Below, piece after piece: positions 256 through 33,706 of a DNA stretch of 41,015 bases; within the stretch, counting starts at the first letter, position 1; the number at the start of each line of letters is the position of its first letter. Source of the DNA: Candidatus Micrarchaeota archaeon. GTDB taxonomy: Archaea; Micrarchaeota; Micrarchaeia; Anstonellales; Bilamarchaeaceae. The stretch covers positions 1-41,015 of the forward strand of contig JAGVWJ010000016.1 in assembly GCA_018304385.1 (NCBI GenBank), written 5' to 3'. The notes under the pieces were generated by a model. It made no database searches and was not told the origin of the DNA. It was given only the letters and a program-made list of their open reading frames with translations. Both the position numbers and the translations under genes were made by a program.

Positions 256-1335
256 TCTTTCATTACCTTTCCTTATTACTTCTTTAACTTCTGGTAAATT
301 TTTATCAATGCTAGCTTTATCTATCTCTAAAAGAATCGCCCTAACATCTTTGTTTAATTTTTTATCCCAGTACGCCATTCTAAAAAAGTATTCTAATCCA
401 GAGGCACATCCTTTTCTAATGTTCTCATCTTTATTTTTCAAAAACTCTACGCATTTGCTCCACTGTTTATTATTTCCGTAGTAAATTGTTAATGCACCAG
501 CAACATGCGTTCTAACATTATCATTTTTATCATCCAAAATCTTGGTTAAATCAGAAACTGGCAATTCTATTTTTCTTATAGCAGCATGTTCTAATGCTTC
601 TGCAGTATTCTCTTTAACAGATTCATTAGAATCTCCTAAGGCACTGGTAAGAGCTGATATTAGTTCTTTTATATCATATTCTTCAAAGAATGCAAAATGT
701 GCTACAGATTCAGCAGCATCCAATCTAATCGTATCATCTTTATTTTTTAGTTCACTAGTAATCCTTTTTACATCAAAACCTCTACAAACCCAAATTGCAA
801 TCTTAACCTCTCTAATATTCCTGTCTAAGTTAGCTCTTTTTATCTCATCTAAAACTAATTTGGAGTTCTCTTTACTCTTTTTTGCGAATAGTCCTAAAAT
901 AGTTGATGTATCAACTCTAACAACATCATCTTCATCTGCTAGTTTTTTAATAACTAAAGACAGACTTTCTGGATCGCTCTCAAATTTTGTTTCTAAAGCG
1001 TGAATCGTGCCTAATTTAACACTCCTGCTTTCGCTGTTTAGTAATCCAGATATTTTTTTCTTATCATTTGTATTCTTGTAGTAAAACGCTTCGGTTTCTG
1101 CAATTGTGCTATCGACAGGGCAACCATGATCGCATCCATGATTATCCTTAGCTTTATTTAGAGCAGATAAAGCTGAAGAAATATCTCCACCAGATTTTGC
1201 AATTTCTAAAATATCCCAAACAATTGGTTGCACTCCGCCGATATATCCGCCATCTTTAATTGCTTCTTCAAGTTGGTCTATCAATTTTTTCAAATCTTTC
1301 ATAATTATTAATCCCAAGATAATCTTATATAACAT
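244..1335 (-). CDS. HEAT/PBS-lyase-like repeat protein
   Basis: 363 aa with repeated 'L.D.D..VR..AA.AL' units (LADEDDVVR, LKNKDDTIRLDAA, LGDSNESVKENTAEAL, LDDKNDNVR). Confidence 0.75.
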   Translation of the reverse strand: MLYKIILGLIIMKDLKKLIDQLEEAIKDGGYIGGVQPIVWDILEIAKSGGDISSALSALNKAKDNHGCDHGCPVDSTIAETEAFYYKNTNDKKKISGLLNSESRSVKLGTIHALETKFESDPESLSLVIKKLADEDDVVRVDTSTILGLFAKKSKENSKLVLDEIKRANLDRNIREVKIAIWVCRGFDVKRITSELKNKDDTIRLDAAESVAHFAFFEEYDIKELISALTSALGDSNESVKENTAEALEHAAIRKIELPVSDLTKILDDKNDNVRTHVAGALTIYYGNNKQWSKCVEFLKNKDENIRKGCASGLEYFFRMAYWDKKLNKDVRAILLEIDKASIDKNLPEVKEVIRKGNERLNS

Positions 1336-1352
1336 TCTTCATTAATCATATT

Positions 1353-1733
1353 ATGACAACCTACCAAAAAGGTTCCCGTGCTGAACGTGAGCTGATCGAA
1401 TATTTCTCTAACAAAGGTTATAGTGTGATTCGGGCAGCAGGCAGCGGCGTCAGCTCGCTTTCTCCAGACATTCTAGTTTTTAAAAGAGGTTTGCAGTTTG
1501 CAATAGAAAGCAAAGCGCATGAAAAAACAAGCTTGCAAATACCTAAGGATCAGTTTGAAGGATTAAGGAAATGGGAAGAGAACACAGGTATTAACTCTTT
1601 AATCGCGTGGCGCCGTAATCGCAAAGGATGGAGGTTTGTTCCTCTAACTTTGTTTGAAGAGAATACTAGCAGCTATTCTTTCTCTTGGGAAAAGGCAGAA
1701 ATGATTGGGAAGAAGTTAGAGGAGTTTATTTAA
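1353..1733 (+). CDS. hjc: Archaeal Holliday junction resolvase
   Basis: KGSRAERELIEYF...VIRAAGSG...PDILV...AIESK is the Hjc PD-(D/E)xK signature; 126 aa. Confidence 0.92.
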   Translation: MTTYQKGSRAERELIEYFSNKGYSVIRAAGSGVSSLSPDILVFKRGLQFAIESKAHEKTSLQIPKDQFEGLRKWEENTGINSLIAWRRNRKGWRFVPLTLFEENTSSYSFSWEKAEMIGKKLEEFI

Positions 1734-1756
1734 ATTGTTCTAAATATACTAATTTT

Positions 1757-2614
1757 ATGGTACTTGTTCATGCAGTTAATGCATTTGCAAAAAAGAGAAA
1801 CGGTGGGAATTCTGCAGGTGTATGCTTAGATGCAGATAGGCTTAATATACAGGAGATGCAACGAATCGCTGCAAGGGTTGGGTTTTCAGAAACTGCATTC
1901 GTACAAAAATCAGATAGAGCTGATTTTAAGGTTAGATTTTTCACCCCAGTAAACGAGGTTGCGCTTTGCGGCCATGCAACTATAGCGACATTCTATTTGC
2001 TTGCAAGCCTTGGTAGAATAGGCAAAGGAAGACACACACAAGAGACAAAGGCAGGGGTATTAGACATTGAAATTGCAGATGATAATCTAATATTCATGAA
2101 CCAAAACCCCCCTCAATTTCTTGGAACTGTTGATAAAGAAGAAATAATCAGATGCTTTGCCAACCTTCGATCAGGAGATATATCAATGCTTCCTATAGAA
2201 ATTGTATCAACAGGCTTGCCAGTAATGCTTGTTCCAGTTGTTTCTCTTAGAAGATTGCTTACTCTTGTACCAGATTTTCGTAAGATTACAGAGATAACTG
2301 AGCGTTATGGGCGTACTCTGATGTATGTTTTTACTATGCAAACAGAACTAAAAGGATCAACCGCGCATGGCCGTATGTTCGCTCCTTCACATGGAATACC
2401 TGAAGAATCTGCAACAGGTATGGCTAATGGCGCATTAGAATGTTATTTATTTAAACATAGCCTAACTAGTGATCCACTAAATCTAGTATTTGAACAAGGT
2501 TACTCGCTTGCTCGACCATCTGAAATTCTAGGTCGGCTTATTGTAGAAGCTGGCGAAATAAAACAAGTAATAATTGGCGGAAGAGCAATAGTTGCTGGAC
2601 AGATTGAGGTATAG
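1757..2614 (+). CDS. PhzF family isomerase/epimerase
   Basis: VNAF..GGNSAGV, GFSETAFV, RFFTPVNEVALCGHATIA, EESATGMANG. Start set at ATG 1757 rather than the track's 1685. Confidence 0.9.
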   Translation: MVLVHAVNAFAKKRNGGNSAGVCLDADRLNIQEMQRIAARVGFSETAFVQKSDRADFKVRFFTPVNEVALCGHATIATFYLLASLGRIGKGRHTQETKAGVLDIEIADDNLIFMNQNPPQFLGTVDKEEIIRCFANLRSGDISMLPIEIVSTGLPVMLVPVVSLRRLLTLVPDFRKITEITERYGRTLMYVFTMQTELKGSTAHGRMFAPSHGIPEESATGMANGALECYLFKHSLTSDPLNLVFEQGYSLARPSEILGRLIVEAGEIKQVIIGGRAIVAGQIEV

Positions 2615-19073: not shown

Positions 19074-19943
19074 ATGCAATTCTCAGATTTTTTTAAACTC
19101 GTTCGCTTTGAGCATGCAATAATGCTTGCAATCGCAGTTTTTATTGGAGAGACAGTAGTTCTTGGTCACATACCGGAATTCACAATTCTTATCCTGCTCT
19201 CATTATTAGTTCCTATATTTAGCGAAATGGGAAGTTTTGCATTAAATGATTATCTTGATGTTGATAGCGACAGATTAAATAAAAAAACTGAAAGGCCGCT
19301 TGTTCGCGGCGCAATTAAGCCTGATTTTGCATTTAAATTTGCATGGCTTGCTTTTATTGTTTCAACTGTGCTGGCGTTTTTTATTAATATTCCTACATTC
19401 GTAATAGCACTGATGTTTAACGCATTCGCAATTCTTTATAATTATAAGCTAAAGGATATGCCACTCCTTGGGAATATATACATTGCGAGTACAATGGCAA
19501 TACCATTCATCTTTGGAAATTTCGCTGTTTCTGCTAGATTAAGAGTAATCTCATTGGTTCTTGCAATGCTAGGATTTATTTCTGGTATAGCAAGAGAAAT
19601 CGTTAAAAGTATTCAGGATATGGAAGGCGATATGCTTGCAAGAAAGGCGCAAACACTGCCTATTCTAATTGGAAGGAAGAATGCAAGTATATTTGCAGTT
19701 ATTTTTTATATAATGTTTATTCCGCTTAGTTATACGCCATTTCTTTATGGATTAAAAATGTCTGCTATTCCGATGATTTTAATATTTATTGGAAACTTAG
19801 GTATCTTATATAATATACTTTTAGTATACAAGGCAATACATGAAAGCGATAAGTCGTCAAAACAATATCTAAAAAAAGCAAGGAATGTGACGCTTGCTGC
19901 ATTGTTTATTGGATTGGTTGGGTATTTAGCTGCGGTTATATAA
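19074..19943 (+). CDS. UbiA prenyltransferase, probably digeranylgeranylglyceryl phosphate synthase
   Basis: NDYLDVDSDRLNK..RPLVRG and AREIVKSIQDMEGD; polytopic membrane protein. Confidence 0.88.
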   Translation: MQFSDFFKLVRFEHAIMLAIAVFIGETVVLGHIPEFTILILLSLLVPIFSEMGSFALNDYLDVDSDRLNKKTERPLVRGAIKPDFAFKFAWLAFIVSTVLAFFINIPTFVIALMFNAFAILYNYKLKDMPLLGNIYIASTMAIPFIFGNFAVSARLRVISLVLAMLGFISGIAREIVKSIQDMEGDMLARKAQTLPILIGRKNASIFAVIFYIMFIPLSYTPFLYGLKMSAIPMILIFIGNLGILYNILLVYKAIHESDKSSKQYLKKARNVTLAALFIGLVGYLAAVI

Positions 19944-19945
19944 TA

Positions 19946-20197
19946 TGGGGTTGCCCAGAGTTTCAACTATTATTATACTTATAGGAAACCGCCGGCCTAA
20001 TCTAAGATATTTCTTAGAGACGGCCTTCCAGGTGTCACTTCGTTCCGCCGGCAGTCTAAGTATAAACTAAGGTCCACCTCACTTTTCTTTTGGAGTGAGA
20101 CCTCAGCCCTTTTCTTTTCGAAAAAGAAAAGGTCTAGGTTTGAACTGGGATCAATGCCTCCCGAAGGCACCAGTCTACCAGGTTAGCCCACAACCCC
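19946..20197 (-). tRNA. tRNA-Pro(CGG) with a 179-nt intron at position 59/60 (19960-20138)
   Basis: 5' exon GGGGTTG-TG-GGCTAACCTGGTAGACT-G-GTGCC-TTCGGGA-GGCAT-TGAT-CCCAG-TTCAAA (20197-20139); 3' exon T-CTGGG-CAACCCC-A (19959-19946). Splice motif is CCCAG/CTGGG + TTCA/TGAA + 3-nt bulges AA|C and AC|T. Spliced product is 73 nt. Confidence 0.9.
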
Positions 20198-20254: not shown

Positions 20255-20992
20255 ATGCAAAGCATGCTTGATTATCTGCTTACCCCAAAAAATCCGAAAG
20301 CGTTAATTGAGAAGTTCAAGGATTTTGCGACTGATACGTTTGGTGATGGTCTGGTAAGTATTGTTCTTTATGGCAGCGCAGCCTCTGGCGAATATAAAAA
20401 AGGAGTGAGCGATCTAAATCTTGTTATAGTGTTAAAACAGATTGATTTTGATATTTTGAAATTGTTCGCATATCGCATGACTAAACTGGGTCTTGGCAGT
20501 AACCTAATAAGAGCGCCACTTATTCTTACAGAAAAAGAGCTAAGCGATTTTTCAACTAACTTTCCTATGGAATTTTTAAGCATTTATAACAATCACATGT
20601 GCCTTTATGGAAAAGATCTATTTGAAAAGTTAAAAATAAACAAAGAAGCGCTAAAGCGCGAAGTACTTGCAGAATTGAATTCCAAGCTAATAAGATTCAG
20701 GCAGCTCTATTTAGATGCAAAAAGGGCAAAACGGCCAAAGTCATTTTTAATCTCCTCTGTATCAGCATTTTCTCAGATAATTAAGGCCTTGCTTTACCTA
20801 AAAGGCGTTACAGTACCTAAATCAAAAGAAGAAAGACTAGAAAAACTAGAAAAAGTGCTTAAAATTGATATTAAACCATTAGAGCTTGCTCACAGTATGA
20901 AATACAAAGACGCTAATCCAAATCAAGATGAAATTGATGAAGCACTATTGAAGATGCCTGGGATGATTAAAGGATTTATTGACTATTTATAA
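20255..20992 (+). CDS. Nucleotidyltransferase domain protein (Pol-beta superfamily) with helical C-domain
   Basis: SIVLYGSAASGEY....SDLNLVIV (GS...DxN/D motif). Confidence 0.8.
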   Translation: MQSMLDYLLTPKNPKALIEKFKDFATDTFGDGLVSIVLYGSAASGEYKKGVSDLNLVIVLKQIDFDILKLFAYRMTKLGLGSNLIRAPLILTEKELSDFSTNFPMEFLSIYNNHMCLYGKDLFEKLKINKEALKREVLAELNSKLIRFRQLYLDAKRAKRPKSFLISSVSAFSQIIKALLYLKGVTVPKSKEERLEKLEKVLKIDIKPLELAHSMKYKDANPNQDEIDEALLKMPGMIKGFIDYL

Positions 20993-21014: not shown

Positions 21015-22685
21015 ATGTCCAACGACCTAACCTCAATTATCCGCAAGCACGCTCTAAAGAATGCCTTAGACTTCGGCAAAGCAAATATTGGTTCGGTAGT
21101 TGGCAAGGTAATCGCTGAAATGCCTACGTGCAAAAGTGATATGAAAACAACAATGCAGAATATAAATGAGATTGTTAACGAAGTAAATAAAATGACTAAG
21201 GATAAGATAGAAAGCGAGCTAAAGAACTACTCATTTATAGAAAAACCAAAAGAAGAGAAGAAAGGTTTTGATATCCAAAATGCCGAAATGGGCGAAGTAA
21301 TCACTCGTTTTCCGCCAGAACCTTCAGGTTATCCGCACATTGGTCATGCAAAAGCTGCATTTTTAGATTATGAAATTGCGAAGCAATTTAATGGTAAATT
21401 TATCTTGCGCTTTGATGATACTAATCCAGAAAAAGAAGAGCAGAAATTTGTGGAAGCAATTAAAGAAGGTCTAGTGTGGCTTGGAATAAAGTGGGATGCG
21501 GAAACTTATACAAGCGATAATATCGAATCTATTTATGCCCATTGCTCAGGGCTCATTGCCAGAGGCTACGCATATATCTGTACTTGCAAACAGGAACAGA
21601 TAAGCGAACTACGCACTAGTATGAAAGAGTGCAGTTGTAGAAACAAATCAATAAATGAACAAGAACAAACTTGGGACACAATGATTCAAGGAAAAGTTAA
21701 AGAAGGCCAAGCAATTCTCCGCTTTAAAGGTGATATGAAATCTTTGAATACTGTTATGCGTGATCCAACGCTTGCGCGTATTATAACTAAGAAACATTAT
21801 CGTCAAGGAACGAAGTATAAGGTATGGCCAAGCTATGATTTAGCCGTAGTAGTTATGGATGCACTTGAATCTATAACCCACCCAGCAAGAACAAAGGAGT
21901 ATGAATTACGCGATGAATTATATTACGCATTATGTGTTGCATTAGGATTTAAACGACCAAATTTAATCGGTTTCTCGCGTTTGGAAATAAAGAACGCACC
22001 AATCAGCAAGCGATTGCTTAAGCCGCTAGTTGAAGAAGGCAAGGTTGATGGATGGGACGATCCAAGACTACCAACGCTTGCTGGCTTAAAGCGAAGAGGT
22101 GTTTTACCAGAAGCAATTCGTACATTCGTACTATCATTTGGATTAAGCAAAGTAGAAAGCGAACCAACCTGGGAGCGATTGCTCGTAGAGAATAAGAAGC
22201 TACTTGATCCTGTTGCAAAGCATTATTTCTTTGTTCCAGATCCAATTGAGCTTTCTACAGAACATAAAAATACTGTTTCTTATAGGATAAAAGGGGAAGA
22301 AAGAAAAGCTAAAATTAATGGAAAGATTTACATTTCCAAATCTGATTTCAAAAATTTGACAAAAGACGAAGTATTTGCGCTAAAGGATTTAGTATTCGTA
22401 AAATTTGATGGTAAAAAACTGATTGAAGTAAAGCAAAATGAAATCCCAGAAAAGAAATTTCAATGGGTAAGCGCTTCTGATAGTTTAAAATGCGAGGTTT
22501 GGATTCCACATGACTTGCTTGAAAATGGCGAATATAATAAAAACAGCTTAGAAATTGCTAAAGGATACTGCGAAAGCGCTTGTGCAAACATAAAAGAAGG
22601 AGAAATGATTCAATTCGAGCGCTTTGGATTCTGTAGATTGGATAAAAAAACTAAAGGAAAGCTTTATTTTGTTTATAGTTGTTAA
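21015..22685 (+). CDS. gltX: Glutamyl-tRNA synthetase, archaeal type
   Basis: RFPPEPSGYPHIGHAKA, LRFDDTNP, ISKR, GWDDPRLPTL, QFERFGF. Confidence 0.96.
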   Translation: MSNDLTSIIRKHALKNALDFGKANIGSVVGKVIAEMPTCKSDMKTTMQNINEIVNEVNKMTKDKIESELKNYSFIEKPKEEKKGFDIQNAEMGEVITRFPPEPSGYPHIGHAKAAFLDYEIAKQFNGKFILRFDDTNPEKEEQKFVEAIKEGLVWLGIKWDAETYTSDNIESIYAHCSGLIARGYAYICTCKQEQISELRTSMKECSCRNKSINEQEQTWDTMIQGKVKEGQAILRFKGDMKSLNTVMRDPTLARIITKKHYRQGTKYKVWPSYDLAVVVMDALESITHPARTKEYELRDELYYALCVALGFKRPNLIGFSRLEIKNAPISKRLLKPLVEEGKVDGWDDPRLPTLAGLKRRGVLPEAIRTFVLSFGLSKVESEPTWERLLVENKKLLDPVAKHYFFVPDPIELSTEHKNTVSYRIKGEERKAKINGKIYISKSDFKNLTKDEVFALKDLVFVKFDGKKLIEVKQNEIPEKKFQWVSASDSLKCEVWIPHDLLENGEYNKNSLEIAKGYCESACANIKEGEMIQFERFGFCRLDKKTKGKLYFVYSC

Positions 22686-33573: not shown

Positions 33574-33706
33574 GCCTCGGTAGCTCAGTAGGTAGAGCAC
33601 CTGACTGTTATCTTTTGTACTGGTAACCCCAAACTAACTATTTTGGGGTGCCTTTTTTCAAAAGGCACAAATCAGGGGGTCGTCTGTTCGAGTCAGACTC
33701 GGGGCG
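33574..33706 (+). tRNA. tRNA-Asn(GTT) with a 60-nt canonical 37/38 intron (33611-33670)
   Basis: GCCTCGG/TCGGGGC acceptor, GCTC/GAGC D-stem, CCTGA-CTGTTA|A-TCAGG anticodon arm, GTCTG-TTCGAGT-CAGAC T-arm, G73. Confidence 0.93.

Follow-up and report, generated by a model that had tools for sequence, protein, structure and literature searches.

Introduction

The tRNA-Trp genes of Euryarchaeota carry an intron at position 37/38 that has C/D boxes, a K-turn and a known guide function. In the Thermoproteales, Fujishima and colleagues reportedly described a large-scale transposition of tRNA introns in 2010, the introns being short.

The lengths of archaeal tRNA introns range from 11 to 129 nt, the canonical splice motif consists of a 4-bp helix between two 3-nt bulges, and 59/60 is listed among the non-canonical positions (2014 review, PMC4090602). 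For ARMAN-2 (Candidatus Micrarchaeum acidiphilum), Fujishima et al. (2011, PMC3239211) give introns at 53/54 and 59/60 of pre-tRNA-Pro(GGG), an intron at 59/60 of pre-tRNA-Cys(GCA) with a relaxed hBH motif, a tRNA-Pro(CGG) with a single Watson-Crick pair in the D-stem, and an epsilon2 enzyme that cuts relaxed motifs; T-loop introns in Micrarchaeota are already known from the same source. The arrival of introns is treated as the central open problem in a 2026 preprint on Asgard tRNA introns (10.64898/2026.10.13.758758).

The window analysed here is a whole stretch of 41,015 nt (positions 1 to 41,015 of contig JAGVWJ010000016.1, assembly GCA_018304385.1, Candidatus Micrarchaeota archaeon), which contains a tRNA-Pro(CGG) gene with an intron of three structural domains in the T-loop. 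Like the tRNA-Trp intron, it is a long archaeal tRNA intron that houses a distinct structured RNA also found in stand-alone form; unlike in that intron, the structured RNA (domain 3, D3) has no C/D boxes, K-turn or known guide function. As in the Thermoproteales, related introns were found in different tRNAs and at different positions, and the gains are recent. The case differs from theirs in that a whole composite of 175–240 nt appears to move between T-loops, and in that one of its modules also exists with TIRs and target duplications, pointing to a source at the DNA level. With ARMAN-2, the locus shares the phylum, the tRNA position, the relaxed motif class, a three-unit epsilon2 endonuclease and a tRNA-Pro with a one-pair D-stem. 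It departs from the ARMAN-2 introns in that the Pro intron is 179 nt long, modular and deeply structured, and the accessible text of Fujishima et al. (2011) holds no such description. The length of the intron, its modular build and its link to transposon-like elements are new; the position, the motif and the enzyme were known.

The reading that is favoured here, with a probability of roughly 0.7, is that of a working single-copy tRNA-Pro(CGG) gene with a protein-spliced intron of the bulge-helix-bulge type, the intron itself being a composite selfish element.

The tRNA-Pro(CGG) gene and its exon junction

The minus strand of the gene opens with the ordinary 5' part of a tRNA and closes with the 3' strands of the T-stem and the acceptor (Table 1). 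Joining the first 59 and the last 14 bases gave a 73-nt tRNA-Pro(CGG) with a complete cloverleaf in ARAGORN. The unspliced gene was missed by ARAGORN and by Rfam at the gathering threshold, and the Rfam tRNA model at a permissive E-value aligned the 5' part of the gene alone, with 17 bits. The D-stem holds one Watson-Crick pair.

An uninterrupted tRNA-Pro(CGG) gene was found in a second genome of the same genus (G002, locus L032). Its T-loop is identical to that predicted by the 59 + 14 join, and compensatory changes separate its anticodon stem from that of the 5' exon. The exon junction is unique, since only this join reproduces the T-loop of the orthologue. The tRNA-Pro with a splice site at 59/60 that had been proposed in the preliminary description, made from the letters of the DNA, was therefore correct, as judged by ARAGORN on the joined exons and by the orthologous junction. 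An intact tRNA-Pro(CGG) elsewhere, which had been named there as a refutation, was searched for in the assembly (1.53 Mb, 36.5% G+C, 89% complete) and no second gene was found. The Pro UGG isoacceptor lies on contig C55, and its gene is likewise interrupted, by an intron in the D-loop; in long ORFs, 11% of the proline codons are CCG. Elsewhere in the window, a tRNA-Tyr gene with a 60-nt intron at the canonical position (33574-33706, plus strand) was the sole Rfam tRNA at gathering score.

Table 1. Features of the interrupted tRNA-Pro(CGG) gene, its splice motif and its intron domains, with the stand-alone relatives of D3.
Feature	Position	Strand	Evidence and remarks
tRNA-Pro(CGG) gene with intron	19946-20197	−	Exons of 59 + 14 nt, intron of 179 nt at 59/60
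5' exon, tRNA positions 1-59	20139..20197	−	ARAGORN on joined exons; 88% identity to uninterrupted orthologue L032; acceptor, weak D-arm, anticodon arm, T-stem 5' strand, six leading T-loop bases
179-nt intron at tRNA position 59/60	19960..20138	−	Ends set by intron-less orthologue; paralogues by blastn and nhmmer
3' exon, tRNA positions 60-73	19946..19959	−	ARAGORN on joined exons and orthologue L032
Splice motif, central 4-bp helix, 5' strand (T-loop bases 54-57)	20141..20144	−	Pairs with 19962-19965; constrained fold
5' splice-site loop, 3 bases	20138-20140	−	Adjoins the central helix strand
3' half of splice motif	19959..19969	−	Constrained fold; same geometry in paralogous introns
3-nt bulge with 3' splice site	19959-19961	−	Between central helix and T-stem
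Central helix, 3' strand	19962-19965	−	
Single unpaired base	19966	−	
Outer 3-bp helix strand	19967-19969	−	Pairs with 20135-20137
Domain 1 (H1), 11-bp pyrimidine/purine hairpin	20108..20132	−	Folds; cross-genus conservation
Domain 2 (H2), nested hairpin	20066..20107	−	Folds; loop repeats the H1 purine tract
Domain 3 with outer 9-bp stem (D3 extended)	19973..20065	−	Folds
D3 core, three-way junction	19984..20055	−	End-to-end match to covariance models R1 (78.5 bits) and R2 (73.7 bits)
Stand-alone D3 elements with inverted ends and direct repeats	L055, L067, L073, L058, L083		Genomes G062, G069, G080

Fold of the intron and the splice motif

The minimum-energy fold of the pre-tRNA had −95.4 kcal/mol (z = −4.4), and none of 200 shuffled sequences folded as well. 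Enforcing the cloverleaf, the splice motif and the three domains together was feasible, at −83.7 kcal/mol against −95.4 kcal/mol for the unconstrained fold. All of the stems that had been listed for the three domains from the sequence were recovered, both in the minimum-energy fold of the pre-tRNA and in that of the intron alone. A stretch that had been taken as unpaired turned out to correspond to a hairpin that related copies form well and that has decayed here.

In the constrained fold the 4-bp helix and the 3-nt bulge at the 3' site are canonical, and the 5' splice site, which is not a clean bulge, falls within a 3x1 internal loop that a 3-bp helix closes. As modelled, the junction is a relaxed bulge-helix-bulge, and the bulge-helix geometry suggested earlier for 59/60 holds in this relaxed form.

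H1 occurs in two sequence subtypes across genera, with the stem paired in both. The idea that the H2 loop pairs alternatively, or forms a triplex, with H1 was considered and rejected; the tracts co-vary between the subtypes, yet only two haplotypes exist and the co-variation thus carries no weight. A box C/D RNA or K-turn was likewise rejected, as neither a C box nor a K-turn was seen on reading the intron sequence. No Rfam match of note to a snoRNA was obtained in the intron, even at E-values up to 10, and the comparison of the intron with Rfam gave noise only, at the gathering threshold and at E-values up to 10. The covariance models of Rfam thus assign the intron to none of their families, in agreement with what had been stated before.

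Splicing enzymes and the tRNA genes of the genome

The genome encodes an EndA of 399 aa that matches the ARMAN-2 epsilon2 enzyme (PDB 4fz2) over its full length (E = 1e-129), and an RtcB ligase (contig C51). Relatives of the EndA in public genomes come almost all from Candidatus Micrarchaeota. A second EndA-like ORF, of 161 aa and with the catalytic domain, was noted on contig C53 of the same genome (L048:1465-1950, minus strand).

With default settings, ARAGORN listed just 2–4 tRNAs in the assembly, which implies that nearly all tRNA genes of the genome are interrupted. A further hairpin module, formed by a T-run/A-run stem with conserved flanks, recurs in D-loop and T-loop introns of several tRNAs (contigs C62:26390-26700, C20:60150-60250, C33 and C55 of this genome; L002, L036 and L038); some tRNA genes have two or three long introns.

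The most likely reading is that the tRNA-Pro(CGG) gene works and that its transcript is spliced by the epsilon2 endonuclease and RtcB. Splicing and circularization of the Pro intron would most likely proceed as follows. T-loop bases 54–57 of the transcript would pair with four bases close to the 3' end of the intron, the 3' splice site coming to lie in the canonical 3-nt bulge and the 5' site in the 3x1 loop closed by the 3-bp helix. Both splice sites would then be cut by the epsilon2-type endonuclease, and RtcB would ligate the exons and probably also circularize the intron.

A family of composite introns

Searches with blastn and nhmmer identified three full-length composite introns of 175–179 nt in this genome, of which the other two interrupt the T-loop of tRNA-Ala(UGC) and that of a third tRNA (contig C20), along with partial copies that comprise domains 1 and 2 only. 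In congeners the same three-domain build was found in Ala(UGC), Ala(CGC), Gly(GCC) and another tRNA, at lengths from 173 to 241 nt. The preliminary description was right about the length and the three domains of the Pro intron and overstated its singularity, with three such introns in the genome and introns of up to 241 nt in a congener.

The closest relatives of the Pro intron sit in two different tRNAs of G002, with 84% and 80% identity, and its identity to the copies of its own genome is only 61–68%; within G002, the introns of Ala(CGC) and Ala(UGC) share 97% identity. Similarity between introns thus fails to track the identity of the tRNA, the mark of a transfer between tRNA genes. Related copies are present in several tRNAs and the syntenic Pro(CGG) gene of the congener lacks the intron, as in mobile tRNA introns. 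Three observations lend good support to the suggestion of a mini mobile element parked in a tRNA: this absence, the paralogues, and a third domain shared with transposon-like elements. A search for a phage or plasmid origin gave no blastn match.

H1 and H2 together make up one widespread hairpin module that is separate from D3. Without D3, the H1-H2 module is much more widely distributed: genomes carry it at several loci, it reaches into other families of the order, and it occupies other positions in tRNAs as well as sites outside them. Sequence comparison thus presents the Pro intron as a composite of two modules, the H1-H2 hairpin and D3. D3 may have joined the hairpin module in the ancestor of the genus, and the composite would then have spread as a unit among the T-loops of several tRNAs; the route of this transfer between tRNAs is one that we infer. 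Two H1-H2 copies outside tRNAs (L006 1456-1600 and L014 1477-1583) were seen to have unusually long flanking direct repeats, with lengths of 37 and 23 nt and identities of 86% and 87%, respectively.

Structure and distribution of D3

Copies of D3 from five genomes align to a three-way junction. Its parts are a closing helix and a variable hairpin, along with a short purine-ended joiner, a 4-bp helix and a terminal hairpin in which two bases form a bulge. In an alignment made with MAFFT, 84.5% of the cells were paired and the covariation score was 0.354, against 0.166 in shuffles. For 42 copies, 80.6% of the cells were paired (62.1% in shuffles) and the covariation score was 0.470 (0.178 in shuffles), a value reached by none of 500 shuffles; the 42-copy alignment was fitted to the model and leans toward the structure, and the MAFFT result agrees with it. 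Double changes were present in 9/9 pairs of the variable hairpin. The 4-bp helix was 99.4% paired, with an invariant closing pair, and the segment between its strands measured about 24 nt in nearly all copies. Some unpaired bases of D3 are invariant, and the three well-aligned helices hold 55 G.U pairs against 22 A.C pairs. The variable hairpin of the copy in the Pro intron is decayed.

The compensatory changes and the fixed 24-nt segment exceed the needs of a passive passenger and fit selection on the RNA, as does the excess of G.U over A.C pairs. A comparison of 15 loci with stand-alone copies against Rfam returned nothing except two ordinary tRNAs, and D3 is well supported as a conserved RNA structure without an Rfam family. 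A second splice motif at the 4-bp helix of D3 was considered and rejected; the unpaired bases lie 5' of both strands, which is the mirror image of a bulge-helix-bulge.

D3 was detected with a covariance model in 14 of the 99 genomes of the family, distributed over 7 of its 23 genera, and a single genome held as many as 8 copies. A second covariance model, run on 77 genomes that represent 11 other families of the order, gave no match, and 123 genomes from elsewhere in the phylum, outside the family, yielded none either. Among the genomes sampled, D3 was found only in family f1.

D3 outside tRNA introns

In the genus of the analysed genome and in two others (G005, G017), most copies of D3 are located in T-loop introns, where they are combined with different upstream modules or stand alone; all 14 inspected intron copies had the sense orientation. 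In other genera D3 takes the form of intergenic elements of 130–145 nt with a conserved 13-bp terminal stem, for which an automatic scan returned inverted ends of 13–14 bp. Perfect direct repeats of 8–9 bp abut both ends in 5/8 of these elements (Table 1). A shared 8-mer was found in 0.3% of random same-locus pairs (P about 0.003 per element).

The stand-alone elements resemble MITEs in that they have TIRs and target duplications, are multi-copy and contain no ORF. D3 is unlike MITEs in that its internal junction is kept by compensatory changes and shows a strand bias in wobble pairs; a further difference is that the Pro-intron copy has no target duplication and that a parent transposon was not found. 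No ORF recurred among the 261 ORFs neighbouring D3, and an autonomous transposon sharing the ends of the elements was not found. One candidate for a parent transposon in G062 was rejected, since its solo terminal repeat adjoins an AAA_14/DUF4143 ATPase and not a transposase. A solo terminal-stem hairpin without the D3 core (L091, G062 contig C5, approximately 1720-1765) may be a deletion derivative or an empty form.

The D3 copy of the Pro intron has a 9-bp inverted repeat. No target-site duplication was detected there or at the other intron-borne copies scanned, so that insertion of the Pro-intron D3 at the DNA level is suggested by its relatives. In the sister genera the inverted repeats and the 8–9-bp target duplications indicate that D3 is probably the core of a mobile DNA element.

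The D3 model also matched positions 472-535 of locus L085 (G021 contig C200), within a MiaB-like methylthiotransferase gene (391-1767, minus strand). D3 forms here an in-frame insertion of 87 nt (29 codons) in the C-terminal TRAM part, which is absent from 4 orthologues; it may either be an insertion that is tolerated or represent a rare intron in an mRNA. An orthologue of the D3-bearing gene was not found in the genome under study.

Gain of the intron

The uninterrupted Pro(CGG) gene of G002 lies between orthologues of the UbiA-family gene (19074-19943) and of the GluRS gene (21015-22685), and with the same two neighbours the locus is syntenic. Four genomes of four genera, G002 included, have an uninterrupted Pro(CGG) gene; in one genome it is interrupted by a different intron, of about 40 nt, at 53/54. 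Since the syntenic orthologue from the same genus is uninterrupted and has exactly the predicted junction, the sequences indicate a recent gain, and the intron most likely reached tRNA-Pro(CGG) after the species had split from its congener. The tRNA gene is inverted with respect to its UbiA and GluRS neighbours when compared with G002. The locus has therefore been rearranged, and a gain at the exact site is not the sole possible history. An ORF of 245 aa with a nucleotidyltransferase domain (20255-20992, plus strand) is situated beside the tRNA and is absent from the syntenic region of G002.

Discussion

Two other histories of the gene were weighed against a recent gain in a working tRNA gene. 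An intron that was ancestral at this site would have been lost precisely in the congener and in the other genera. Recombination with a reverse-transcribed copy of the spliced RNA makes such a loss conceivable, and the rearrangement of the locus means that its history is not simple. This explanation is nevertheless quite improbable in view of the uninterrupted genes in four genera, the congener among them, the different intron of the other interrupted Pro(CGG) gene, and the occurrence of the nearest relatives of the intron in other tRNAs of another species. Inactivation of tRNA-Pro(CGG) by the insertion, with CCG being read by tRNA-Pro(UGG), is considered very improbable: both exons are intact and form a full cloverleaf, the 3' end of the intron pairs better with its own T-loop than the donor-like copies do with theirs, the same splice geometry is present in apparently essential tRNAs such as Ala(UGC), and almost every tRNA gene of the genome is interrupted. 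The UGG isoacceptor, which could read CCG by wobble, the imperfect 5' splice site and the rearranged locus, with the nucleotidyltransferase ORF inserted alongside, are the points that speak for a dead gene.

The main rival to the selfish reading concerns D3, which could be a functional non-coding RNA that uses the tRNA intron as an expression vehicle, being released by splicing, probably as a circle, and being made from a small gene of its own in other genera. Several properties speak for a function: the junction kept through compensatory changes in 42 copies, the invariant unpaired bases and the 24-nt segment of fixed length, the preponderance of G.U over A.C pairs, the sense orientation of every inspected intron copy, and the A/T-rich boxes that were read from the flanks of stand-alone copies about 20–35 nt upstream. 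The rival is retained because the structure of D3 is strongly maintained and strand-biased. Its distribution argues against it, with D3 present in a small part of the family and in none of the genomes searched outside, and with as many as 8 diverged copies in a genome. Target-site duplications and inverted ends mark one subfamily, an ORF is disrupted by one of the copies, the hairpin has decayed in the very copy carried by the Pro intron, and D3 is without a box C/D motif, a K-turn or an Rfam match. Patchiness, copy number, target-site duplications and decay are typical of a mobile element and not of a housekeeping RNA, and a functional D3 is accordingly held to be rather doubtful. A selfish passenger is favoured for D3 because of this patchy, multi-copy and insertion-polymorphic distribution, and as such D3 would have no cellular function.

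A wider proposal, that D3 stands for a new class of small structured mobile RNA/DNA elements that seed archaeal tRNA introns, is put forward tentatively, as possible and short of probable. According to this proposal D3 would insert into DNA as a miniature transposon and persist in T-loops, and perhaps in an mRNA, since the endonuclease of broad specificity can splice it out, and the intron-borne D3 would then spread between tRNAs.

The locus illustrates why standard tRNA finders list almost no tRNAs in such genomes, and D3 is a candidate for a new Rfam family entry, whatever its role. The locus bears on where the sequences of the known non-canonical tRNA introns of archaea come from. It joins a dated gain, an intron beyond the published length range and a module whose relatives show the hallmarks of DNA transposition, and these three features together make the link between a miniature transposon and an endonuclease-spliced intron directly testable. 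If the seeding proposal is true, it would provide a concrete and observable route for the arrival of archaeal tRNA introns.
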